Shown here piece after piece: positions 3,230-59,943 of a stretch of DNA of 64,000 bases. The position numbers and the translations under genes are program-made. The stretch's first letter is position 1; the number at the start of each line of letters is the position of its first letter. The DNA comes from an uncultured Verrucomicrobiae bacterium (GTDB lineage Bacteria; Verrucomicrobiota; Verrucomicrobiia; Limisphaerales; UBA11358). The stretch is taken from positions 85,035 through 149,034 of the forward strand of contig CAVXLF010000023.1 in assembly GCA_963762585.1 (NCBI GenBank), written 5' to 3'. The notes under the pieces were generated by a model. It saw nothing but the letters and a program-made list of their open reading frames with translations. It was not told the DNA's origin and made no database searches.

Positions 3230-3802
3230 TTATCTTTTGCGACAGGTTCTGACGCGATACCGCGGCGCGGTTTCCCGGACGTGAAAACCGATCTCGCGGC
3301 GGTTTTCCGGCTTCGGCGGTTCAACCAACTGCCGGATGGCCTCAAATAAACTGGTGATGGCTTCGTCATGGCCGCTGACGCGGGTTTCCAATTCCTTCAA
3401 TTTCTGTGCGAGTTCCTTGTTGGCCGTGATGTGTTCACGCATCCAGACAAACGCACGTACGACCCGGACACTGGCTTCGACGGCCACCGGGCTGTTCAAA
3501 ACACTGGCGAGCATCAACGCGCCATGTTCAGTGAAGGCCGTCGGCAAATGACGATGTCCGCCGTGCAGACTTGAGGTCGCAAATTGCGACCTCAAGTTTG
3601 CAAGCTCTTGATGGGCAAGCTCAAACGCAAAGTCATTGGGGAATCTTTCGGCATTCCGGCGGAATTGTTCTTTTAACCGTTTCGTGGTCACGCCATAAAC
3701 CCGCGCCAGATCAAAATCCAACATAACCCGCTGCCCGCGAATCAGATAAATCATATCTTCGATCCGCAGTACCTGAGCCGCGTTGTTTTTGTAACTGACC
3801 AT
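3230..3802 (-). CDS. ORF6N (KilA-N-like) domain DNA-binding protein inserted between atpA and atpG
   Basis: 190 aa; IRGQRVMLDFDLARVYGVTTKRLKEQFRRNAERFPNDFAF...LRSQFATSS...LPTAFTEHGALMLASVLNSP..A...RAF is the ORF6N family pattern; coiled-coil tail. Visibly more AT-rich than flanks. Confidence 0.75.
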   Translation of the reverse strand: MVSYKNNAAQVLRIEDMIYLIRGQRVMLDFDLARVYGVTTKRLKEQFRRNAERFPNDFAFELAHQELANLRSQFATSSLHGGHRHLPTAFTEHGALMLASVLNSPVAVEASVRVVRAFVWMREHITANKELAQKLKELETRVSGHDEAITSLFEAIRQLVEPPKPENRREIGFHVRETAPRYRVRTCRKR

Positions 3803-3810
3803 GAAATTGT

Positions 3811-5343
3811 TCAGTGATAGGTCTGCTTGAATTCCGTGACCGCCGCCTTCAGCTCGGCCGTGAGGGCGTCGTTGATCGCCTTTTCGACGCGAATCTTCGC
3901 CAGCAAATCCGCTTTGCGGGTGTTGAGGAAGTCCGTGAATTTGGCCTGGAAATCCTTGATCTTGTCCACCGGCACGTCGTCCATGAAATTATTCTGCACG
4001 GCCCACAACACCGCCACCTGCGATTCCACGGGAAGGGGATTGTATTGCTGCTGCTTGAACACTTCCACAATGCGCTTGCCGCGTTCGAGCTGCGCCTGCG
4101 TCCGCGCGTCGAGGTCCGAACCGAATTGCGCAAACGCCGCCAGTTCGCGGAACTGGGCCAGGTCGCCCTTGATGCGGCCGGCCACCTGTTTCATCGCCTT
4201 GACCTGCGCCGCCGAACCGACGCGGCTCACGGACAAGCCGACGGAAATTGCCGGGCGCACGCCCTGATAAAACAAATCCGTCTCCAGATAAATCTGCCCG
4301 TCGGTGATGGAAATCACGTTTGTGGGAATATAAGCCGAGACGTCGCCCGCCTGGGTTTCAATGATGGGCAGCGCCGTAAGCGAGCCATTGCCGTAACTTT
4401 CCGCCACCCGCGCGCTGCGTTCCAGCAAACGGCTGTGGAGATAAAACACGTCGCCCGGATAGGCTTCGCGGCCCGACGGACGCTTGAGCACGAGCGACAC
4501 CTGGCGGTAGGCCACGGCGTGCTTGGACAAATCGTCATAGATGATGAGCGCGTCCATGCCGTTGTCCATGAACCATTCGCCAATCGCCGCGCCGGCGAAC
4601 GGCGCCAGATATTGGTTCGTGGCCGAGTCGGAAGCCGCCGCCACCACGATAATCGTGTAAGGCAGGGCGCCCGCGGCTTCGAGCACGTTCAGCACCCGCG
4701 CGATGTTCGATTGTTTCTGGCCGATGGCGACGTAAATGGAGTACAGCGGGCGGTAACTTTTGTCACCGGCCTGCTCCGCCGCCTGATTCAGCCGCGCGTT
4801 GTTGATGATGGTGTCGATGCAAATGGTCGTTTTGCCGGTTGAACGGTCGCCGATGATCAATTCGCGCTGGCCGCGGCCGATGGGAATCATCGCGTCAATG
4901 GCCATGATGCCGGTCTGTACGGGCTGGCTGACCGATTTGCGTTTGATGATGCCGGGCGCGATTTTTTCCACCGGGTAAAAACCGCTTTCCTTGATGGCTC
5001 CCTTGCCGTCGAGCGGCTGGCCCAGGACATTGACGACGCGGCCCAGCAAACCCTTGCCCACGGGCACCTGCAACAGCCGGCCGGTGGTGCGGACTTCGCC
5101 GCCCTCCTTGATTTCGGTGTAATCGCCGAGGATGATGGCGCCGACCTCGGTTTCCTCCAGGTTCAGCGCGATGCCGGTGATGCCATTGCCGAAATCCAGC
5201 ATCTCGTTAAGCATCGCGTCGGTGAGGCCTTCGATCTTGGCCACGCCGTCACCGATTTCGCGGACCACCCCGACATTTTGTTTCACCGTCGCGAGCTTTA
5301 CGCCCGCGATCTGGGCTTCAATTTCCTGCAACAGGTTGCTCAT
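3811..5343 (-). CDS. atpA: F1 ATP synthase alpha subunit
   Basis: 510 aa; GDRSTGKT Walker [13 protein letters not shown], typical alpha C-terminus. Confidence 0.97.
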
Positions 5344-5352
5344 AAGATTTTT

Positions 5353-5745
5353 TCAAAAACTTTGTGCCAATTTATCCAGCCGCGTCCGCACACTGCCGTC
5401 GTAAAGGTCGCTGCCGACCTGGATGCGCAGTCCGCCCAGCAGCGCCGGATTCTGGCGGAACGTGATGTCGGCGCCGGCGCCGTAAATTTTTTTGATTCGA
5501 TCCGCCACGCCCGTCTGCAAATCCGCGGGCAGGGAGGTGGCGCTTTCAATGCGCGCGGCATGCTGTTCCAGATCCAGTTTCACCAGCCGGTGCAGGCGCG
5601 ACAAAATTTCAACGTAACCGCGCGGTTTTTTCGCCAGCAGCAAGGTCGTGGCCTGCCGGACGCGGCTTTCATCCAGCAAACCATTCGCCTGACAACTGCG
5701 GAACAGTTGCCGGGCTTCGCGTTGCGCCAGTTTGGAGATTTTCAT
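5353..5745 (-). CDS. atpH: F1 ATP synthase delta (OSCP) subunit, unusually short
   Basis: 130 aa; position between atpF and atpA; C-terminal LLGGLRIQVGSDLYDGSVRTRLDKL matches the OSCP C-terminus. Shorter than the ~180 aa typical of delta. Confidence 0.75.
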   Translation of the reverse strand: MKISKLAQREARQLFRSCQANGLLDESRVRQATTLLLAKKPRGYVEILSRLHRLVKLDLEQHAARIESATSLPADLQTGVADRIKKIYGAGADITFRQNPALLGGLRIQVGSDLYDGSVRTRLDKLAQSF

Positions 5746-5761
5746 TCCAATTCTTTTGAGA

Positions 5762-5811
5762 TAGGGACGCCGCGCCGCGGCGTCCGGTCAGCGCCGCGCG
5801 CTGACCCTACC
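5762..5811. repeat. 50-nt double-hairpin GC-rich REP-like element (TAGGG...CCCTACC) filling the atpF-atpH intercistronic gap
   Basis: TAGGGACGCCGCGCCGCGGCGTCCGGTCAGCGCCGCGCGCTGACCCTACC: two 9-bp stems with 3-nt loops; 45/50 identical to 21897-21946. Confidence 0.85.
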
Positions 5812-5814
5812 CAT

Positions 5815-6303
5815 CTAGGCCACCAGTTGTTTTTCGGTTTCCTCCGCCAATCGCCGCTGGTCTTCCGGCGTAAGGATCTTGCCGGTGACGGTGGTGGTGG
5901 TCTGCACGACCAGCCGCCCGACTTCCCGTTTCAATTCTTCGAGCATCCGCGCGTGATCCTGCGCGGCGGCTTCGCGCGCCTTGGTGATGATTTGTTCGGC
6001 GGCGGCAATGGCCTTTTGCGTTTCGACTTCGCGCACGTGGGCGGCGGCGGCCCGCGCCTCCTCGATCATCTTGTTGGCGAGGTCGCCGGCCTGGGCCAGA
6101 ACCGCCTGGCGGTCGGTCTCGGTCTTGGCCAGTTGCGTCTTGATTTTCTCGGCGTTGGCCAGGCCATCGGCGATTTTTTCACGGCGCACCTCCAGCATGG
6201 CGAAGATCGGCCGGTAGGCAAATCTCCACAGCACGAAAAAGACGATGGAAAAACTGATCGTCTGCGCGATCAGGATCTTCCACTGGATACCTAAAGCGTC
6301 CAT
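5815..6303 (-). CDS. atpF: Fo ATP synthase subunit b
   Basis: 162 aa; N-terminal TM helix then long charged helix (AEKIKTQLAKTE...), operon position. Confidence 0.8.
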   Translation of the reverse strand: MDALGIQWKILIAQTISFSIVFFVLWRFAYRPIFAMLEVRREKIADGLANAEKIKTQLAKTETDRQAVLAQAGDLANKMIEEARAAAAHVREVETQKAIAAAEQIITKAREAAAQDHARMLEELKREVGRLVVQTTTTVTGKILTPEDQRRLAEETEKQLVA

Positions 6304-6310
6304 GGCCGGA

Positions 6311-6529
6311 TTATTTGACGACCAGCCACGCGATGACGGCCCAGCCTTCGGCGAGCGCCATGCCGACGAACATGAACGTCAGGATTTTGCCAAACATTCC
6401 CGGGTTGCGGCTCATGGCGATGACGCCACCGGCCGTGGCGATGCCGATGCCGATGGCCGCGCCGCCAAAGGCGAGACCGATGTGGACGTTGCCCTGAATC
6501 ACAGGGGCTACTGTATCTGCTAGCATCAT
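6311..6529 (-). CDS. atpE: Fo ATP synthase subunit c
   Basis: Start moved to ATGATG at 6529: MMLADTV...GLAFGGAAIGIGIATAGG...SRNPG...FVGMALAEGWAV, a two-helix c subunit with conserved carboxylate (E). Confidence 0.85.
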   Translation of the reverse strand: MMLADTVAPVIQGNVHIGLAFGGAAIGIGIATAGGVIAMSRNPGMFGKILTFMFVGMALAEGWAVIAWLVVK

Positions 6530-6591
6530 AACTTTTCTTTCAGTTGGTTTTGGTTGTCGCCCCGGCGTCCCGTGCCGGGGCAAAAAATAAA

Positions 6592-7548
6592 TCAATGGCT
6601 GTGCTGTTCATCGTTGTGCGTGCAGAGCGTGCCGACGAACGCCACGACGAGCATCGCAAACACAAACGCCTGCACGATGCAGACGAAGGTTTCGTAAAAA
6701 TAGGTAAACGACGATAGCAGCAGCGACAGCAGGAAATGATTGTGGAACTCCATGTCCAATATGCTTTCGCCGGCATAAATATTCCCGTAAAGGCGCATCG
6801 CCAGCGCCACCGGCCGCGCAAATCCCACGGAAAGCAATTCCATCGCGCCGATGAACAGGAACAGCAGAAAGAACAGCGGATAGGTCCATTTGTTGGTGTC
6901 CATCTTCACGCCGAAGATGTGTTTGATCAGCCCCCAAAAACCGTTGTACCGCACCGCCCAGAACAGGCTCATCACCAGAAATATCCCGGCCATCACGATC
7001 GTCAGATTCGCGTCGGTTGTCGGCGGGCGGAAGAACGGTGTGAACTGTCCGTGATGATAAGACCCGATGCTGCCGACGCCCGGGACCAGATCCACCAGGT
7101 TCGACATGACGATGAAAATGAAAAACGTCGTGGCAAACGGAAAAACCCAGCGCGCCACACGCTCGTCCAGAATGTCGCCGATCAGGCCTTCCCACGCTTC
7201 CACCAGCGATTCCATCACGTTCTGCATTCCCGATGGGACTTCCTTGACGCCCTTCCACGTCGTCAGGCGGACAATGGTTAAAATGACGGCCGCGACAATC
7301 CAGGTGCAAATCATCGAGTTCGTCACCGGCAATCCCAAAACCGTGAACAGCGTCGGCGCGCCGGACGGAACCACTTCTGCCGCCGGTTCGGCGGTTGGCG
7401 CCGTGGCCGTCGTGTTTGCCGCGCTGGAAATGGCTCCTCCCGGCGGATGGCCGGGGGCGGATGGCGAAGAGGGCTGCGCGTCCACTGCCACCGCGAAAAT
7501 CGCGGCGAGGAACACACCGGCTAAAATAATTGTGCCGAATCGCTTCAC
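6592..7548 (-). CDS. atpB: Fo ATP synthase subunit a
   Basis: Conserved C-terminal LAMRLYGNIYAGE...FVFAMLV; likely GTG start at 7548 (AAGGAAG about 9 nt upstream) giving a signal-like N-terminus followed by a Pro/Ala/Ser-rich stretch; longest ORF runs to 7653. Confidence 0.85.
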   Translation of the reverse strand: MKRFGTIILAGVFLAAIFAVAVDAQPSSPSAPGHPPGGAISSAANTTATAPTAEPAAEVVPSGAPTLFTVLGLPVTNSMICTWIVAAVILTIVRLTTWKGVKEVPSGMQNVMESLVEAWEGLIGDILDERVARWVFPFATTFFIFIVMSNLVDLVPGVGSIGSYHHGQFTPFFRPPTTDANLTIVMAGIFLVMSLFWAVRYNGFWGLIKHIFGVKMDTNKWTYPLFFLLFLFIGAMELLSVGFARPVALAMRLYGNIYAGESILDMEFHNHFLLSLLLSSFTYFYETFVCIVQAFVFAMLVVAFVGTLCTHNDEQHSH

Positions 7549-16108: not shown

Positions 16109-16199
16109 CGTTGTTGCGCTTTGTCCGAACCATCATCGAGAAGCCCACCACGGCGCAGACAAAATCGAAATGCGCAGGAAGTTTTTGACTCGTCTCGCT

Positions 16200-16441
16200 G
16201 GCTGAATCCGAGGAATCCCAACGGGATTCCATCATTCAGCCCAGGGTTGGCGCGCAGCGACTACCCTGGGTTAAACGCACCCAAAACCATCAACCCCAAC
16301 GGGGTTGCATCAATATTCACCCAAACGAATTCAACCCCGTCGGGGTTGTGTTTCATTTTTGATCCGTTACCCGGCGTAGGCCGATTTCTTCGGCCAACGC
16401 CGGGCTGAATGATGCAGCCCCTTTGGGGCTGAACCCTCAGC
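16200..16441. repeat. Cluster of six short GC-stem / 3-4-nt-loop hairpins, two nested in GGCTGA(AT)...(AT)TCAGCC outer stems
   Basis: GGAATCCC-AAC-GGGATTCC (16212-16230); CCCAGGGT...ACCCTGGG (16240-16270); CAACCCC-AAC-GGGGTTG (16291-16307); CAACCCC-GTC-GGGGTTG (16332-16348); GGCCGA-TTTCT-TCGGCC (16379-16395); CAGCCCC-TTT-GGGGCTG (16415-16431). Confidence 0.7.
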
Positions 16442-16541
16442 CAATCCGGTCGCACGACATTCCAAAACGCGGCGAATGATTCTCCCTCTCCTTGGGGAGA
16501 GGGCCGTGGCGAGGGAGGTCGTTATCACAAATTATTTTCCC

Positions 16542-16565
16542 AATCTGTGTTTCATCTGTGGCTAA
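16542..16565. repeat. ATCTGTG-type short tandem repeat
   Basis: AATCTGTGTTTCATCTGTGGCTAA; same core as 45448-45477. Confidence 0.6.
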
Positions 16566-16659
16566 TAAATCCTCCGCGGCCTTCGCGCGACATTTTACGA
16601 AAACCCGTCAATTCACAGGGTTGCGCGGCCGCCGGTTTTTATTAAGCTTACCGAAACTC

Positions 16660-17490
16660 ATGCCGCCCAAGACACGACGCGCACCCTCTTCCGAGGCACC
16701 AACCACCCTGTGGCTTCACTGGCTGCTGACCGTTCTGTGCGCCGCCGCTTTTGGACTCGTGGTGGTGATGCTGTTCAAACCCTTGAACCTTCCCGGCACG
16801 GCCGGCTGGCCGGAGGCATTGCTGCTGGTATCGGCGGTGGCCTGTAGCGTCACCGCGCTGGCGCGGCGGCTGCCGTTGCAAAATGTCCTGCTGGCAGTGT
16901 TCGTCATCGCCGTCCTGGGCGGCGCGGTGCATGCCTTGGGCGTCATCACCGGGATTCCTTTTGGCCCGTTCACCTTCGGGGAGAGCATCGGGTCGGAAAT
17001 TTTCAAAACGCTGCCGTGGGCCGTGCCGTTGATCTGGGTGCTGGCGGTTCTGAGTTCGCGCGGCGTGGCGCGGCTTATCCTGCGCCCGTGGCGAAAGATT
17101 GGCGCCTATGGCTTCTGGCTCATGGGGGTGACGGCGGTGCTGACGCTGCTCTTTGATTTCGCCCTGGAACCATTCGCGTCGCGGGTAAGTCACTACTGGC
17201 TGTGGACGCCGACGAAATTCCCGTTGACGTGGCAGGGCGTGCCTGTGTCGAATTTTTTAGGCTGGGCGGCGATGGCTGCGCTGATGGCAGTGGTGATTGC
17301 GCCCGCCTTGATCAACAAACAGCCGGGCAAGAGAAATTCGCCGGATTTCCATCCCTTCGCCATCTGGCTTGGAGCCATTTTGCTGTTCGGAACCGGCTGT
17401 GCGCAGCACGGACTTTTATCCGCGGCGGTGGCGGACGGAATTCTGGCGGCCCTCGTCACCATCTTCGCCATTCGCGGTGGAACCTGGTGA
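16660..17490 (+). CDS. Polytopic membrane protein, possibly DUF422/carotenoid-biosynthesis-protein family
   Basis: ATG 16660 (MPPKTRR); ~7 hydrophobic helices; GIPFGPFTFG...LPWAVPLIWV recalls the DUF422 motif (from memory, unverified). Confidence 0.45.
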   Translation: MPPKTRRAPSSEAPTTLWLHWLLTVLCAAAFGLVVVMLFKPLNLPGTAGWPEALLLVSAVACSVTALARRLPLQNVLLAVFVIAVLGGAVHALGVITGIPFGPFTFGESIGSEIFKTLPWAVPLIWVLAVLSSRGVARLILRPWRKIGAYGFWLMGVTAVLTLLFDFALEPFASRVSHYWLWTPTKFPLTWQGVPVSNFLGWAAMAALMAVVIAPALINKQPGKRNSPDFHPFAIWLGAILLFGTGCAQHGLLSAAVADGILAALVTIFAIRGGTW

Positions 17491-21663: not shown

Positions 21664-22449
21664 TTACCCGCGACAATTTTTCATCAAGCGCAGCATCTCC
21701 TTGACCGCGGTTTTGAGGCCAGTCATGACCGCCCGGCTGACGATGCTGTGGCCGATGTTCAATTCCACCAGGTGCGGCACGCGATGGAGTAGCGGCAGGT
21801 TTTCGTAATTCAATCCGTGTCCCGCATTCACCCGCAGGCCGAGCGCGTGCGCCTGCTCCGCGGCGGCGATGAGGCGGTCGAGTTCTGATAAATCGGTAGG
21901 GACGGCGCGCTGCGCCGTCCGGTCATCGCCGCGCGATGACCCTACCTTTTTATAAAATTCCTCCGCAAACGCACCGGTGTGCAATTCGACAAACTGGCTT
22001 CCGACCCGCGCGCTGGCCTCAATCTGCTCTTTATCCGGTGCAATGAACAAACTCACCTCGATGCCGGCATCGTTCATTTTCTGGCGTGTTTTGGTCAGAG
22101 CTTTTTCACTCGCGGCCACGTCCAGTCCGCCCTCGGTGGTCACTTCCGACCGGCGTTCGGGCACGAGGCAGATGATATCCGGTTTTAATTTCAGCGCGAT
22201 GGCGATGATGTCCGGCAGGTTGGCCATTTCGAGGTTGAGCCGGGTTTTGACGGTTTTCCGCAATTTCCAGATATCGCGGTCCTGGATGTGCCGGCGGTCT
22301 TCGCGCAGGTGCGCGGTGATGCCGTGCGCGCCGGCGGCCTCGCAAATCCGCGCGGCCTCGACCGGGTCCGGTTCACCAAATCCACGGTTGCGATAACGCG
22401 CTTCGCGGATGGTCGCGACGTGGTCAATATTGACACCCAGTTTCAACAT
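21664..22449 (-). CDS. pdxJ: Pyridoxine 5'-phosphate synthase (carries in-frame repeat insertion)
   Basis: ATG 22449: [60 protein letters not shown]. Confidence 0.92.
21897..21946. repeat. 50-nt double-hairpin REP-like element inside pdxJ coding sequence
   Basis: TAGGGACGGCGCGCTGCGCCGTCCGGTCATCGCCGCGCGATGACCCTACC; translated on the minus strand as [18 protein letters not shown]. Confidence 0.85.
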
Positions 22450-22558
22450 GTAATCAACCTGCCAGCCTTGCGTCTGGCACAACAGAATATTTTCAAGAGG
22501 TGCATTTCGTGCCAAAAGAGTTCCCCTTTGGCAAATTCAATTACATTCGAATTGCCCG

Positions 22559-27165: not shown

Positions 27166-27840
27166 GTGCTCATCGCATTCAACAAGCCGTTCGGCGTGCT
27201 GTCGCAGTTCACCGGGGATGGCCCGGCGAGTCGCACGCTGGCGGAATTCAATTTTTCCAAAGACGTTTACCCCATCGGCCGGCTGGACGCGGATTCCGAG
27301 GGGCTGTTGCTGTTGAGTGACGAGCCGGAGTGGAACGAACGCCTGCTGCATCCCCGTCAGGCGCATCAACGCGAGTATTGGGCGCAGGTGGAGCGCATCC
27401 CGGCGCCGGAAGCGTTGAAGAAATTGGAACGCGGGGTTTTGATTCAAGGCCGGAAAACCTTGCCGTGCCGCGCGTGGCTTCTGGAGCCGCAACCGGAGGT
27501 GGCTGCGACGCCTCGTCGCAGCAGCGTGGCAGCGACGCCCCCGTCGCAACCTGTTCCCGTCGTCGGGGCGACGACGACACCTTTCGGCGACGGGGCGTCG
27601 CCGCCACAAATTCCACCACGGAACCCTCCGATTCGTTTCCGCAAAAGCGTGCCCGATTGCTGGATCGGCCTGGAATTGATTGAAGGCAAAAATCGTCAGG
27701 TGCGGCGCATGACCGCCGCCATCGGCCATCCGACGTTGCGGCTGATTCGCGTTCGCATCGGCGGATTGAAACTTGGCACACTTGCTGCAGGCGAATGGAA
27801 GGTGCTCTCGATGGAAGAACGCCGGTCCCTGGCAAATTGA
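27166..27840 (+). CDS. rluE: Pseudouridine synthase, RsuA/RluE family (carries in-frame repeat insertion)
   Basis: GTG start; FNKPFGVLSQF, YPIGRLDADSEGLLLL (catalytic Asp), PRNPPIRFRKSVP, EGKNRQVRRMTAAIGHPTLRLIR. Confidence 0.85.
   Translation: MLIAFNKPFGVLSQFTGDGPASRTLAEFNFSKDVYPIGRLDADSEGLLLLSDEPEWNERLLHPRQAHQREYWAQVERIPAPEALKKLERGVLIQGRKTLPCRAWLLEPQPEVAATPRRSSVAATPPSQPVPVVGATTTPFGDGASPPQIPPRNPPIRFRKSVPDCWIGLELIEGKNRQVRRMTAAIGHPTLRLIRVRIGGLKLGTLAAGEWKVLSMEERRSLAN
27502..27602. repeat. Four consecutive CGACG/CGTCG-core hairpins inside the rluE-like ORF
   Basis: GCTGCGACG-CCT-CGTCGCAGC (27502-27522); GCGACG-CCCC-CGTCGC; CGTCGTCG-GGG-CGACGACG (27559-27577); GGCGACG-GGG-CGTCGCC (27586-27602). 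Confidence 0.75.
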
Positions 27841-28929: not shown

Positions 28930-28980
28930 TTGACAGGGTCATCGATTGACGGTGTGAAATGTTGGCGGTAACTTCTTTCC

Positions 28981-30003
28981 ATGATTGCTGTTGCTGACCA
29001 TTCCGCACCGGTCGTGGACGACCTGCAAGTCCGCCCGGCCATGGCCCCTTCGCGGTTCGAGCCGCTGGCCCGGGAGATTTTCGCGCTCAAAAAGCAGCTC
29101 AACGCCGTCATTCTCGCCCACAATTATCAGGTGCCGGAAATCCAGGACGTGGCGGATTACGTCGGCGACTCGCTCGGCCTGTCGCAACAGGCGGCCAAAA
29201 CGAGCGCGGATGTGATTGTGTTCTGCGGCGTGCATTTCATGGCTGAGACGGCGAAGATTTTGAACCCGAACAAGATTGTCGTGCTACCGGACAAGAACGC
29301 GGGCTGTTCGCTCGAGGAAAGTTGTCCCGCGGACAAACTGGCCGCGCTCCAGGCGACGAATCCCAATTTCTGGACCATCGCCTACATCAATTGCAGCGCG
29401 GCGGTAAAGGCCCTGACCGACGTGATCTGCACCAGCGGCAACGCGGTGAAAATCGTTCAGGCCGCGCCCAGGGACAAGGACATCCTGTTTGTGCCGGACG
29501 AAAACCTGGGTGCGTGGGTGATGGAACAGACCGGCCGCCCGATGACGTTGTGGCAGGGCAATTGTTACGCGCACGTCGAGTTCCGGCGCGAACAGGTGCT
29601 GAAATTGCGCGCGAAATATCCCGACGCCAAGGTTGTGGTGCATCCGGAAAGTTTGCGCGAAGTGCGTGATCTGGCCGACGCGGTTTGCTCGACGGAGCGA
29701 ATGATTTCCTACTGCAAATCGGACCCGGCCAAACGATTCGTCGTGGTGACGGAATCGGGCATAATCCACCGGATGCAGAAGGAATGTCCGGGCAAGGAAT
29801 TTCTATGCGCGCCGGTGTTCGACGTGATGCGGCTGCCGTCGGATCATTGCCGTTGCAGTGAGTGCAAGTACATGAAGCTGAACACGCTGGAAAAGGTGCG
29901 CGACTGCATGAAACAGCTCGCGCCGCGCGTTGAATTACCGGCGGAAATCTTGAAGCGCGCCCGGTTGCCCATTGAGCGGATGCTGGAAATTTCAGCGCGG
30001 TAG
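28981..30003 (+). CDS. nadA: Quinolinate synthase
   Basis: 340 aa; ILAHNYQVPEIQDVAD.VGDS, FCGVHFMAETAKIL, AYINCSA, VVHPES, TESGI; start could be the later Met at 29041. Confidence 0.93.
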   Translation: MIAVADHSAPVVDDLQVRPAMAPSRFEPLAREIFALKKQLNAVILAHNYQVPEIQDVADYVGDSLGLSQQAAKTSADVIVFCGVHFMAETAKILNPNKIVVLPDKNAGCSLEESCPADKLAALQATNPNFWTIAYINCSAAVKALTDVICTSGNAVKIVQAAPRDKDILFVPDENLGAWVMEQTGRPMTLWQGNCYAHVEFRREQVLKLRAKYPDAKVVVHPESLREVRDLADAVCSTERMISYCKSDPAKRFVVVTESGIIHRMQKECPGKEFLCAPVFDVMRLPSDHCRCSECKYMKLNTLEKVRDCMKQLAPRVELPAEILKRARLPIERMLEISAR

Positions 30004-30023
30004 GGCGGCGCTGCCGCGCCGCC
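30000..30023. repeat. GTAGGG-headed hairpin supplying the nadA stop codon
   Basis: GTAGGGCGGCGCTGCCGCGCCGCC: GGCGGCGC-TGCC-GCGCCGCC stem; TAG at 30001-30003 is the nadA stop. Confidence 0.7.
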
Positions 30024-30105
30024 GAGGCCGGGCAGCAGCCTGGCCCTGCCAAAAGTTGGAGACAGGCGCGACGCCGGTTCTACAGCGTAGGTTTGGCCCG
30101 CTGAC

Positions 30106-37129: not shown

Positions 37130-39793
<2,664 letters not shown>

Positions 39794-39947
39794 TTATCGC
39801 CAGACCGGATATGTTGTGGTGCGTAAAAAGCCTCCAAAACCACTTTTCCCGGGCGGAGGAAATGCTTGGAACCAAGGTGGGCGGCCACCTGGTTGGGCAG
39901 CAAAACTTCCGCTTTTCAGTCGCGATGCGGCGTCATATTCTCGGCTG

Positions 39948-42224
39948 GTGAGTCTTCACCGCGACCAACTTTTCGCGCCACTGAAACAATTCTTCGGCTT
40001 CAGTTCCTTCCGTCCGTTGCAGGAGGAAATCATTCGCGACGCGCTCGCGGGCAAGGACGTTTTCGCCGTGCTGCCCACCGGCGGCGGCAAATCGCTCTGC
40101 TTCCAGCTTCCCGCGCTCGTGCAACCCGGACTCACCGTTGTCGTCTCGCCGCTCATCGCGCTGATGAAGGACCAGGTGGACGCGCTACAGGCGGCGGGCG
40201 TGGCGGCGACATTTTTGAATTCATCGCTCGCCGCCGGCGAATCGCGTCCGCGCCTGCGCGGCTTGCACCAGGGCGAGTTCCGGTTGCTCTACGTCGCGCC
40301 GGAGCGGTTAATGTTGTCCGGTTTTCTTGACGACCTGAAGAAATGGAACGTGAACCTGTTCGCGATTGACGAGGCGCATTGCATCAGCGAGTGGGGACAC
40401 GATTTCCGCCCGGAATACCGGCAATTGCAGACGATGCGCGGAATTTTTCCAACCGTGCCGATGATGGCGCTCACGGCCACGGCCACCGAACGCGTGCGCG
40501 GCGACATTGTCCGGCAGCTGCATCTGAAGGATCCCGCGTGCTACGTCGCCAGTTTCAACCGCCCGAACCTGACTTACCGCGTCGCGGCGAAGTCAGGCGC
40601 TTATGACCAGATTCTTTCGTACGTGCAGGCGCGGCCGAACGAAAGCGGCATCATTTACGTGCAGGCGCGCAAAACGGCGGACAGCCTGGCGGCCAAACTT
40701 TCCGCCGACGGCGTGAAGGCGCTGCCGTATCACGCGGGCATGACCCCCGGTGACCGGACGAAAAGCCAGGAGGCATTTCTTCGCGACGAGGCGCGCGTGA
40801 TTTGCGCGACCATCGCCTTTGGCATGGGCATCAACAAGCCGAACGTGCGTTTCGTGATTCACTACGACCTGCCGAAGAACATCGAAGGCTATTATCAGGA
40901 AACGGGCCGCGCCGGCCGTGACGGTCTGCCCGGCGAATGTCTGCTGTTGTTCAGCCCCGGCGACCGGGTCAAGCAGATGCGGTTCATTGACGAAAAACCA
41001 AGTCCGCAGGAGCGCGAAATCGCCCGCGCCCAACTGGAACAGATGATTCACTACGCCGAGATCGCCACCTGCCGCCGTGAATTTCTGCTGGGATATTTCG
41101 GGGAGAAATTTAATCCAAATGAGGTTGTCGGACAAGGTGGGGCGCGTCACTCCGTGCGCGCCGACTTTGCAACATTGGACAACGGCGCGCACGGAGTGAC
41201 GCGCCCGACCGAACCCGTGAATTGTGCCGGCTGCGACAACTGCCTCTCGCCGCGCGCGACCTGGGACGGCACGCTGGCGGCGCAAAAATTTCTTTCGTGT
41301 GTCTATCGCATCCGTGAGAAAAGCGGTTTCGGCGTCGGCATTCAGCACGTGGTCGAGGTGCTCTGCGGTGCGGAAACGGAAAAAGTCCGCAAGTTCGGCC
41401 ACCACACACTTTCGACCTACAACATTGGCGACGGACATGCGCGCGCCGAGTGGAGCGCGATTGGACGTGAACTGGTGCGGCTCGGTTTGCTGTTTCAAAA
41501 CGCGGAGAAGTTCAACATCGTCGAGCTGACCGACGCCGGTCACACGGCGCTGAAATCGCGGCAGAAAATCACGTTGACCAAACCGGTCGCTCCGACCGAA
41601 CCGGCGAAGCATCGCGCCGGCGAAATTGCCTGTGACGAGGCGTTGTTCGAGAAATTGCGCGCGCTGCGGAAACAGCTTGCCGACGCGCGCGCCGTGCCGC
41701 CTTACATTATTTTCTCCGACGTGTCGCTGCGGCAGATGGCGCGGTTTTATCCCGCGAACGAAAAGGATTTTTCGCGCATCAGCGGCGTGGGTGAAAGGAA
41801 GCTGCGCGAATTCGGCGAAGCTTTCCTGGGTGAAATTGCGGCGCATGTGCAGACGAACCCGCGCCAGGTTTTTGCGGATGATTTCCCGGCGGATGGAATG
41901 CCGTCCGCGCCGGTGCCGCGCCGGTCACGGCTGACCGACAGCGTGCGCGAGACGCTGCATTTTTTCCAGCAAGGCCGGGCGGTTTCCGAAATTGCAAAAA
42001 TTCGCGGCTTCAAAGACAGCACGATTTACAGTCATCTTGAAGAAGCCATGCTCGCGGGCGAATCGGTTGATGTGCATTCATTGGTTTCAGCCGAAGCCAG
42101 GCGCGACATCGCCGCAGCCTTCGTCCGGCACGGTTTCGGCAACCTCACCGGCGTGGTCGAATCGCTCGGCGGGAAATACGGTTACGGCGAATGCCGCGTC
42201 GTCCGCGCCGCGTTGCAAAGGTAG
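39948..42224 (+). CDS. recQ: ATP-dependent DNA helicase RecQ (helicase-RQC-HRDC plus C-terminal HTH-like tail)
   Basis: [91 protein letters not shown], CxxCDNC, HRDC ([15 protein letters not shown]). No in-frame ATG; GTG 39948 proposed. The track ORF start 39540 overlaps gyrB. Confidence 0.92.
41136..41210. mobile_element. REPIN (inverted REP doublet, 28+19+28 nt) inserted in frame in recQ
   Basis: GGTGGGGCGCGTCACTCCGTGCGCGCCG (41136-41163) and CGGCGCGCACGGAGTGACGCGCCCGACC (41183-41210); each is 27/28 identical to the arms flanking the RAYT gene at 59.3-59.9 kb. Confidence 0.85.
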
Positions 42225-48812: not shown

Positions 48813-48841
48813 GGCTTAAACGTGGAGAGGCTGCGATGGAA

Positions 48842-48935
48842 AACATCCAACATCCAACATCCAACATCCAATTCCCAATGCCGGCGGTGCAGGCATCATT
48901 GGATGTTCGGCGTTCGATGTTGGATGTTGGATGTT
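48842..48935. repeat. Inverted pair of heptamer arrays (AACATCC xN ... GGATGTT xN)
   Basis: AACATCC x4 perfect plus 2 degenerate (48842-48883); GGATGTT-type x5, 3 perfect (48901-48935); the arms are reverse complements. Confidence 0.85.
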
Positions 48936-48959
48936 CACTTGGCGGTAGGAAACCGTTCC

Positions 48960-49874
48960 TCACGTTTGCGCCAGCAGTTCGACGAGCAGCGTGAGGACCT
49001 CGTCCCGGTCTTTGCCGTTCAGCGCCAGCGCCAGTTGCGCCGTGAGCAGGCCGTATTGAACGCCGATGTCGTAACGGCGGCCCTGCAATTCGCACGCGAG
49101 ATAGCGTTCGCTTTCGGCCACCCTGGCCAGGGCATCGGCAAGATGCACGCCGCCGGTGTTGCCCGCAGCCGTCACGAGTTGTTGCAGAATGTCCATCACG
49201 CCGGACGTCAAAACATGCATGCCGAAAAAACACAGGTAATGGCCGGCGCGCAGGCCGGGCACGATGAGTTTTTGTTCGGCCACCGTCGGCGTGGGTTTTT
49301 CCACGACGCGATCCACCTGATACAAACCGGCCCGGCCCGGCAGCCGCCGCGCGCCCACCGCGCCGTAGTAGGGCAGCTTGCTTTCGTGTGTGGGTTGCAC
49401 CGCGGAAACCGCGCAGGCTTCGGCGGAGGCCAGCTCCAGCAATTGCCGGGCGCAGGAATTTTTATTTTTGCTGACGTACAGGTGGTCGCCCACCAAAAGC
49501 ATGAACGATTCGTCGCCGGTAAAGTTCCGCGCACAGGCCACGGCATGGCCGTAGCCCAACGGCGCGGGTTGCTCGATGAATTGGACGCGATTGGCGTGCG
49601 GCCCGGCGGCGGCGGCAAAGGCGCCCTCGTCACCGGGGGAAATCACCAGCCCGATTTCCTCAATGCCGGCCTGCAACACCTCCTCGAGCAGGATGGTGAG
49701 GGCCGATTTGGACTGGCCGTCGCGGTCCATCAACGATTGCAACGGCAGGTTTCGCTGATTGCGACCGGCGGCGGTAATGACAGCTTTGCGGATTTTCACG
49801 GCTGGACGCCCGGCGGGGCAGGTGGTGTTTTCTTCATGACTGGCAAAACGCGAGCATAAGGGCCGCGCGGCCAT
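48960..49874 (-). CDS. GalU-like sugar-1-phosphate nucleotidyltransferase with degenerate N-terminal motif
   Basis: [18 protein letters not shown] (in place of GalU-type AAGLGTRFLP), [12 protein letters not shown]. Start is ATG 49874 or GTG 49799. Confidence 0.65.
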
Positions 49875-59293: not shown

Positions 59294-59930
59294 GGTAGGG
59301 CGCGTCACTCCGTGCGCGCCGTCGTTGTTCGTGCGGCGGGCAGGGGACTGCCCGCCCTACCCAAACGTGGGTGACGGTCGGTTATTCGGGCGATAGACCC
59401 ATGCCCAGTCTTCCGCGCGCTCGCACAATCCTTTACGGACAGGATTCATCAGAATGTAGCTGGTCTTCTCCGCCAATTCATTATGATCGCGCAGACGGTG
59501 ATCGAAGAAATCGCGTTGCCAATGCACATCGTGTTTTAAAGCCACATATTTCTTCCAATTTTTCATCACCGTTTCAATTCCTGGTTCGCGCGGGAACGCG
59601 AGGAGGGCATGCAAATGATCCGGCATGAGCAGGCACAGCCGACAATGCCAGATAAGTTTCTCATGGTTGTATTTCATCGCCGCCAACACAGCATCGCCGG
59701 TTCCGGCCTGGCATAAGTGATTTCTTCCCGGCGGCATGCATTTGATCGTGATGAAGAACCAACTTCCCTCAGCCACCCACTGCGGAATTGTGTGCGGCAG
59801 CTTTTTGCGGACAGGCAAGTCCATTAAGTGAAACGCAACCGAGGCCAACCGTGAAAGTTGGGCTCCGTAAGTCGTCTATGCGCCTTTAGTATTTTCGAAC
59901 AACGGCGCGCACGGAGTGACGCGCCCTACC
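59294..59930 (-). mobile_element. RAYT unit: tyrosine transposase gene bracketed by perfect 28-bp inverted REPs
   Basis: GGTAGGGCGCGTCACTCCGTGCGCGCCG at 59294-59321 and its exact reverse complement at 59903-59930. An additional GTAGGG-headed hairpin (59335-59362, minus orientation) supplies the RAYT stop. Confidence 0.85.
59357..59824 (-). CDS. REP-associated tyrosine transposase (IS200/IS605 Y1 superfamily)
   Basis: GSWFFITIKC, LLMPDHLHALL (HUH), WQRDFFDHRLRD, YILMNPVRKGL (catalytic Tyr), collinear with E. coli-type RAYT. ATG 59824 preferred over TTG 59848. Confidence 0.85.
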   Translation of the reverse strand: MDLPVRKKLPHTIPQWVAEGSWFFITIKCMPPGRNHLCQAGTGDAVLAAMKYNHEKLIWHCRLCLLMPDHLHALLAFPREPGIETVMKNWKKYVALKHDVHWQRDFFDHRLRDHNELAEKTSYILMNPVRKGLCERAEDWAWVYRPNNRPSPTFG

Positions 59931-59943
59931 TGCACAAATCACA

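Follow-up and report, generated by a model that had tools for sequence, protein, structure and literature searches.

The rluE gene of an uncultured Verrucomicrobiae bacterium, which lies in a stretch of 64,000 nucleotides of contig CAVXLF010000023.1 (GenBank assembly GCA_963762585.1; the whole analysed stretch, 64 kb, is called the window below), carries four GC-rich hairpins that are read in frame with the encoded 23S rRNA pseudouridine synthase. It is very likely that these four hairpins are one composite mobile element of the repetitive extragenic palindrome (REP) type, or of the REPIN type in which REPs stand as inverted pairs, and that this element, which belongs to a family that we call family a, is translated in a permissive loop of RluE. 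An earlier note on this DNA, made from the letters alone, had recognised four in-frame hairpins within an RluE-like gene, and all of them are indeed present at 27502-27603. The class was not named there: it is that of the REP/REPIN-type elements linked to REP-associated tyrosine transposases (RAYTs).

Structure of the element and its host gene

The product of the host gene is of the RsuA/RluE type in a Pfam profile search (PF00849, E = 5e-17), and its G38-R39-L40-D41 motif (GRLD, with catalytic D41) is invariant among relatives (alignment A1). The closest PDB structures are those of E. coli RluE (2OML and 2OLW, E ~1e-41), and the alignment to them comes in two stretches, residues 2-107 of the query with 41-145 of the 2OLW/2OML chain and residues 146-213 with 147-214; at the break, 38 query residues face one residue of E. 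coli RluE. The match to the NCBIfam RluE equivalog is likewise interrupted by the insert, with one stretch before it and one after, and because of this split its score of 150 bits remains under the cutoff of 284. With a score below the cutoff, we describe the host enzyme as probably RluE, the 23S rRNA pseudouridine-2457 synthase, its specificity for position 2457 being a prediction from homology. An AlphaFold2 run on a 51-sequence alignment, which held close relatives only, gave a mean predicted local distance difference test score (pLDDT) of 36.8 and was unusable, and no structural claim in this work rests on it.

The boundaries of the element and of its units are given in Table 1. The earlier note had listed stems of 9, 6, 8 and 7 bp; its first three values and all its loops are as we find them, and the fourth stem is 8 bp long. 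Its location of 27502-27602 falls within the natural boundaries of the element, which are 27499 and 27607, and the predicted fold is composite and not a row of four independent hairpins. The element has a period of 27 nt and an outer inverted repeat of 43 nt with 77% complementarity. Its forward units 1 and 2 begin with GTGGCTGCGACGCC... and GTGGCAGCGACGCC..., its reversed unit 4 ends with ...GGCGTCGCCGCCAC, and an unpaired GTGG head is found on units 1, 2 and 4 (in reverse on the last). These inverted unit pairs, together with the 43-nt outer repeat, form the architecture of REP doublets or REPINs.

Table 1. Features of the 64-kb window treated in the text; positions are counted from its first letter
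Feature	Positions	Strand	Description	Basis
RluE-type 23S rRNA pseudouridine synthase gene	27166-27840	+	intact host gene, 224 aa	PF00849, PDB matches, GRLD motif
Composite REP element in rluE	27499-27607	+	109 nt, GTGG...CCAC, four 27-nt units (two forward and two reverse), in frame	period, inverted repeat, folding
Unit 1	27499-27525	+	forward; GTGG head and hairpin H1 (27502-27522), 9 bp, loop CCT	
Unit 2	27526-27552	+	forward; GTGG head and hairpin H2 (27532-27547), 6 bp, loop CCCC; long-range pairing with unit 4	
Unit 3	27553-27580	+	reverse; most diverged; hairpin H3 (27558-27576), 8 bp, loop GGG	
Unit 4	27581-27607	+	reverse; hairpin H4 (27585-27603), 8 bp, loop GGG; terminus ...GCCGCCAC; best-conserved arm	
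REP doublet in pdxJ	21897-21947	-	GTAG type, 51 nt, GGTAGGGACGGCGCGC.../...GATGACCCTACC; in frame in pdxJ (21664-22536, -)	
REPIN in recQ	41136-41211	+	type d, in frame in recQ (39507-42224, +), inside the Zn-binding domain	
REP doublet beside the RAYT gene	59296-59362		contains type-d arm GGTAGGGCGCGTCACTCCGTGCGCGCC	
RAYT gene	59357-59875	-	REP-associated tyrosine transposase	NCBIfam NF047646 REP_Tyr_transpos, 85.9 bits vs cutoff 80, E = 2.4e-24
Inverted type-d REP on the other side of the RAYT gene	59905-59931		GGCGCGCACGGAGTGACGCGCCCTACC, the reverse complement of 59296-59322	

The minimum free energy (MFE) of a 115-nt stretch is -73.5 kcal/mol when folded as RNA (z = -5.9) and -46.3 kcal/mol when folded as DNA (z = -7.2), with none of 200 shuffles as good in either case, and the rluE element ranks second in stability among the 110-nt windows of the 64 kb. 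In the MFE structure, H1 stands beside a long stem that pairs unit 2 with unit 4 around H3. An Rfam scan of the element reached at best 29 bits against a gathering threshold of 89, with a generic long-hairpin miRNA model. Within the window, the 21-nt unit GTGGCAGCGACGCCCCGTCGC has two matches at three or fewer mismatches with none expected. The simpler pattern CGACG-N3-5-CGTCG has four matches in the window, three of which sit within the 100-nt rluE stretch; with 1.05 expected and four matches reached by 3 of 100 shuffles, its enrichment is not convincing.

When translated, the element encodes ...VAATPRRSSVAATPPSQPVPVVGATTTPFGDGASPP..., a segment rich in Ala, Pro, Thr and Ser that amounts to ~37 extra residues. 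It is free of stops in all six frames, as are 64 of 2000 composition-matched shuffles, and the GTAG-headed elements of the window are open in two to five frames only. The G in place of A in the GTGG head removes a TAG and would thereby leave family a open in all six frames.

Dispersal of family a

The unit of family a is GTGGCnGCGACGCCCCCGTCGC. The earlier note had proposed that the hairpin is a member of a repeated family with copies outside rluE, and a metagenome scan with the 22-mer GGCGACGRGGCGTCGCCGCCAC, which is the arm of unit 4, bears this out: exact matches occur in at least 120 contigs, nearly all of them beyond rluE, and among the 83 matches listed three are at rluE and 80 elsewhere (80 loci examined; loci are cited below by labels such as L104). 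A doublet of the form GTGGCTGCGACGCCCCCGTCGCAG-(5-10 nt)-GGCGACGAGGCGTCGCCGCCAC is recurrent. The four-unit composite recurs too: unrelated loci such as L104, L156, L114, L121, L130 and L153 show both the layout seen in the window and its '...CCACCTTTC-GGCGACG...' joint, and the composite is therefore a standard form of the element, not one built inside rluE. Unrelated copies in L094, L104 and L156 have GTAG heads, and further copies beyond rluE are present in L015, L081 and L086, the one in L015 being intergenic and placed directly after nadA. Several of the other families that occupy the rluE site, described below, also recur beyond rluE in the fetched loci; among them family c, which has extragenic copies in genomes with a different family at rluE, is a textbook REPIN.

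Most of the sampled family a copies are, like the one in rluE, intragenic, so that the word extragenic in the original definition of REPs does not fit them; PMC3733652, all the same, counts intragenic REPs among the members of the class. The open reading frames (ORFs) that span the element are supported by Pfam at 18 of 20 sites checked, a fraction that is indicative only, as these sites were the ten longest frames plus ten arbitrary picks. The hosts include HemB, AcrB, ClpB, ValRS, AspRS, aconitase, PurD, a MiaB-like radical-SAM enzyme, glycoside hydrolases and a sigma-70-family (ECF-like) factor, and where the position was worked out (e.g. L104, L142, L099 and L159) the element is placed inside a domain or between domains. 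Other genes read this DNA in different frames or from the opposite strand, for instance as GGDASSP in ClpB. We had also considered the presence of a spanning open frame as a measure of coding placement, and it was rejected: 92% of random windows are spanned, and other families range from 0% (family b, a single copy) to 100%. Since this measure does not discriminate in GC-rich DNA, the Pfam checks were used instead.

In several sets of genes that appear to be orthologs and come from different metagenomes (L148/L159 in hemB, L096/L101/L122/L157, L111/L160, L139/L142 and L125/L149), family a doublets share one position, which indicates that individual intragenic copies persist for long. In L086 (16566-16640) and L081 (7234-7310), the family forms direct tandem arrays with a period of 26-28 nt that are read as AATPPSQK-like repeats and make up the C-terminal tail of a 226-aa ORF without a Pfam match.

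The rluE site among Limisphaerales orthologs

The window and 80 loci from a scan of species-representative genomes give a set of 81 orthologs, all from metagenome-assembled genomes (MAGs) of Limisphaerales (Verrucomicrobia subdivision 3), and these loci often share the same neighbouring genes. The site is empty in 18 of the 81, where the sequence reads CTG GAR CCG CAR CCG / GAA ATT CCG CCG / CGC, that is LEPQP-EIPP-R. Together with the single residue of E. coli RluE at this place, the empty sites agree with what the earlier note had supposed, an in-frame insertion between conserved RluE blocks. The remaining 63 orthologs are filled at the same codon, with 42-156 nt added over the 12-nt empty site, always in a multiple of three, and the reading frame is intact in 81/81. 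Most of the 63 inserts are predicted to fold as a strong hairpin, and a few singletons fold weakly.

These inserts belong to at least nine unrelated families (b and c with 11 members each, d and i with six, a and e with five, j with four, h with three and f with two) in addition to ten singletons, and most of them have GTAG/GTGG...CTAC/CCAC termini. Chimeric occupants exist as well: L024 and L017 combine family h with half of b or e, L028 and L053 combine half of d with e, and L033 holds a nested occupant. Family a itself is present at rluE as a 54-nt hairpin with two arms in L008 and L036, and in its expanded form in L007, L035 and closer relatives, with a GTAG head on unit 1 in L091 and L093. 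A possible target-site duplication (AAAT), the feature that would mark a MITE bounded by terminal inverted repeats, is seen at the junctions of family c. The 11-nt palindrome CGGAA-A-TTCCG at the empty site was considered as a target signal; as it is not present in all empty orthologs, we gave it no weight. Several MAG records titled Pseudomonadales, Bifidobacteriaceae, Acidoferrum, Sulfopaludibacter or Aquilonibacter hold typical Limisphaerales rluE loci (L010, L033, L043, L046, L072 and L075), and these bins are probably mislabelled or contaminated.

Sequence constraint and alternative explanations

Constraint on the insert was compared among six orthologs that have the four-unit form and whose proteins are 76-82% identical to that of the window. 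Identity at codon positions 1 and 2 is 0.88 in the core and 0.79 in the insert, at position 3 it is 0.59 in the core and 0.72 in the insert (a value reached by 9 of 20,000 random subsets of the core), and at the amino-acid level it is 0.83 and 0.65. Third positions are thus more conserved and the peptide less so, with no codon periodicity, and what is constrained is therefore the nucleic acid. The alignment of orthologs that the earlier note had called for accordingly finds the insert without conservation at the protein level. Across seven orthologs, 93% of stem cells are paired, mostly by invariance: in unit 2 the figure is 97.6% of cells, in unit 3 it is 89%, and in unit 4 seven of the eight pairs are invariant. 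The unit 1 stem of L090 shows a compensatory change from T-A to G-C. This pattern fits a REP that is kept recognisable or is homogenised as DNA or RNA, and it argues against a functional peptide.

The conservation of stems and third positions could also be expected if selection maintained the hairpins, as RNA or DNA structure, for a regulatory effect in cis on rluE, through ribosome pausing, through stabilisation or processing of the mRNA, or through pausing of transcription or replication, in which case any strong hairpin would do, whatever its REP family. A hairpin insert, in most cases a strong one, does stand at this exact codon in 63 of 81 orthologs despite the change of family, and effects of REPs on mRNA stability are known (PMC3733652). 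We nevertheless regard this explanation as unlikely, because 18 orthologs manage with an empty site, the same elements occupy many unrelated genes and intergenic slots with a like variety, covariation is not significant, and conservation of a REP would result equally from recognition by a transposase or from gene conversion among copies.

The insert might otherwise be a lineage-specific functional segment of RluE, such as a flexible linker or an interaction loop, in which palindromes are incidental. Its Ala/Pro/Thr/Ser-rich composition resembles that of a disordered linker and the frame is kept in every ortholog, but the codon-position data above point the other way, relatives at ~95% core identity hold unrelated peptides or none, and the same DNA is translated in other frames or from the other strand in other genes, which together make this explanation highly improbable. 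Even less credit can be given to an origin in situ by slippage or local duplication, as a low-complexity expansion that was never mobile: units 1 and 2 are direct repeats with a 27-nt period, for which local duplication is possible, but the exact 22-mer arm and the four-unit layout at many unrelated loci, with only three of the 83 listed matches at rluE, contradict it, Tandem Repeats Finder reported no array at the element, and the insert is cleanly absent from the orthologs with an empty site. Finally, palindromes can mislead assemblers and the source is metagenome-assembled, but an artefact of assembly or binning is extremely unlikely, given that independent samples from ENA, Logan and JGI yield the identical 224-aa protein on 15 contigs, each time beside the same neighbouring genes, and that variants at 96-99% identity retain the insert.

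Turnover of the occupants at the rluE site

The insert family is at most weakly related to the phylogeny. The nearest neighbour on the rluE core has the same insert type in 18 of 81 cases (permuted mean 8.1, permuted maximum 18), and on three syntenic neighbours concatenated to 1,067 aa, from 35 taxa, parsimony needs 24 changes against 24.9 with permuted labels. Unrelated inserts are found even between pairs with 93-95% identity. Inserts of the same family at rluE share loops and junctions that extragenic copies do not have, and this indicates one origin per family at this site. In the flanks, the identity between orthologs of the same type and between those of different types differs by about zero in each 100-nt bin up to 900 nt, and no type-specific flank variants were found among the orthologs compared; this null result gives no support for simple vertical inheritance, nor for recombination with detectable tracts. 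The intergenic slot 3' of nadA has the same variety of occupants across species, and the rluE site therefore behaves as any other REP slot in these genomes.

The turnover may come from old alleles that are reshuffled by very short conversion tracts, from repeated site-directed replacement, or from the limited resolution of the tree. A bolder proposal, which we offer tentatively and hold to be rather doubtful, is that the rluE loop is a persistent REP 'docking slot' whose occupant is exchanged among at least nine families in a site-directed manner, for instance by excision and re-insertion through a RAYT or by hairpin-templated conversion, at a pace that exceeds the divergence of species and leaves no linkage to the flanks. 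According to the same proposal, family a would be a coding-adapted, mainly intragenic REP lineage, with its GTGG head and six open frames, whose own RAYT lies in frame in clpB in one related contig.

Transposases and the proposed mechanism

The window contains a RAYT gene (Table 1), which is matched by E. coli RayT in a tblastn search (E = 2e-5) and for which a Pfam search returned nothing. REPs of type d, the family that is also inserted in recQ of the window, stand on both of its sides. A possible second transposase is seen in locus L120, in which the clpB frame (3959-7426 on the minus strand; L106 is orthologous) has an in-frame insertion of ~295 aa, at residues ~531-825, without a stop. 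The inserted part includes a RAYT-like segment with an HUH motif 'PNHVHVLV', a Tyr motif 'SYIQNHP' and a match to Pfam Y1_Tnp (E = 3e-9), and family a REPs are placed on both sides of the segment, with one interrupting it. A whole family a REPtron, that is a RAYT with its REPs, thus appears to be fused into ClpB.

We propose that a RAYT, as an HUH/Y1 single-strand transposase, would have carried the element into the rluE site. Within genes, only stop-free copies with a length divisible by three would survive. The extra ~37 residues would then be a tolerated surface loop, probably disordered and without a function of its own, with translation and enzyme activity both predicted from sequence. 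Over time the site would act as a lasting REP 'slot' in which one occupant is replaced by those of other REP families. RAYTs are a likely and well-motivated candidate class of mobilising enzyme.

Several results count against a mobile REP/REPIN-type element, or at least against its simplest form. The REPtron at 59296-59931 is that of another family: its RAYT is cognate to the type-d REPs and not to the family found in rluE, and the RAYT-like segment of L120, which does have family a around it, scores 63 bits in NCBIfam where the cutoff is 80. When filled and empty junctions are compared, no target-site duplication or other insertion signature can be read for the rluE element. No second copy of family a is present in the 64-kb window, and its dispersal in this genome is therefore judged from related genomes and metagenomes. 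Covariation of the stems across the seven orthologs is not significant, with two compensatory pairs, matched by 76 of 500 shuffles. Moreover, one origin per family together with the lack of flank similarity is something that simple repeated transposition does not explain.

Other REPs and hairpins in the window

The earlier note counted rluE as the third housekeeping gene of the window with such an insertion, and pdxJ and recQ are indeed the two others. The PdxJ domain covers residues 32-285 for 234 profile positions, and the REP doublet, at about residues 196-213, is inside it; the family of this doublet also occupies the rluE site of L013, L043, L065 and L080. In recQ, the match to RecQ_Zn_bind extends over 97 residues for a 66-position profile, and the region of the REPIN is the most stable 110-nt fold of the window (-70.5 kcal/mol).

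Another GTAG-headed REP doublet (29999-30050) begins at the stop of nadA (28972-30003), the TAG stop being a part of the REP head. The slot at the end of nadA is empty in some other species and filled by family d, c, e, a or i in others.

Three further hairpin regions were seen in the window. Two nucleotidyl-transferase-like ORFs flank a long and near-perfect hairpin of CCAACAT heptamer repeats (48826-48965; ~-75 kcal/mol for 171 nt). Small hairpins, CAACCCC-NNN-GGGGTTG, GGAATCCC-AAC-GGGATTCC and CAGCCCC-TTT-GGGGCTG, are located at 16171-16475, upstream of an ORF with a carotenoid-synthesis domain (16480-17490). A perfect 13-bp hairpin, ACTTGAGGTCGCA-AAT-TGCGACCTCAAGT, is found at 3569-3597 in an ORF6N-domain ORF (3230-3988, -).

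Significance and comparison with known systems

The element accounts for the low-complexity, Ala/Pro/Thr/Arg-rich inserts in housekeeping enzymes of Verrucomicrobiota, a recurrent oddity of annotation, and inserts of this kind split profile matches. It also adds a well-documented case, with empty, filled and chimeric alleles in 81 species, to the small literature on selfish palindromes that are translated. The rluE site offers a possible natural experiment on how REPs choose and re-use sites, on how proteins tolerate insertions in loops, and on REPs as seeds of new protein sequence. In our opinion the turnover of occupants at this site is more interesting than the element itself.

Palindromic elements in bacterial genes are said to have been described in 2000 by Ogata and colleagues for Rickettsia, whose Rickettsia palindromic elements (RPEs) are reportedly mobile palindromes that lie in frame in housekeeping genes, are translated, and are tolerated in surface loops. 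The likeness of RPEs to the rluE element is functional only, as the head here is GTGG/GTAG and not CGTC, and the host is a member of Verrucomicrobiota. RPEs of Rickettsiales belong to the CGTC-tagged superfamily, which was defined alongside the GTAG-tagged one, and have no known dedicated transposase (Di Nocera, De Gregorio and Rocco, 2013, BMC Genomics 14:522, PMC3733652).

In REPIN-RAYT systems of Pseudomonas and E. coli (Bertels and Rainey, 2011, PMC3116915; RayT b0228), inverted REP pairs likewise fold into a long hairpin, the HUH/Y1 transposase is present in a single copy and is likewise flanked by its own REPs (the RAYT of the window passes the NCBIfam cutoff), and REPINs persist at orthologous sites. 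Unlike family a, which is mostly intragenic in our sample and open in six frames, classical REPINs are overwhelmingly extragenic.

The closest parallels are the intragenic REPs of the verrucomicrobium Opitutus terrae, the genome with the highest count of GTAG elements in the survey of PMC3733652, where most GTAG-20 elements have GTGG heads. According to the same survey, intragenic REPs encode 20-30 and up to 43-82 residues, their hosts include the pseudouridine synthase genes truA and truB, with truB noted as a host in R. conorii, and REP ends supply TAG stops. As in rluE, the intragenic REPs of O. terrae are short palindromes with a GTAG-type head that occur in frame in known genes as singles, dimers or groups, in a member of Verrucomicrobia with REP-flanked RAYT genes, and the donation of a TAG stop is what we see at nadA here. 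In contrast, neither VAATPPSQ nor GDGASPP is matched by the O. terrae REP peptides that the survey lists in its supplement (GTGVPPV, VGPALAAG and others), and the survey does not cover rluE as a host, Limisphaerales, a four-unit composite, or the use of one codon by at least nine families in ~80 species. A precedent for a coding site with different REPs in related species is recB, where Xanthomonas campestris and X. oryzae have different REPs at 'about the same site' (PMC3733652); that comparison is between two species, whereas for rluE there are 81 orthologs, 18 of them empty, at least nine families, chimeras and a test against phylogeny. The rluE element is thus a clear new example, with a new family and a new host gene, of a phenomenon already described, and not a new mechanism. 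Three points go beyond the survey of PMC3733652: many families occupy one codon, family a resides mainly inside genes, and clpB contains a RAYT-like segment in frame.

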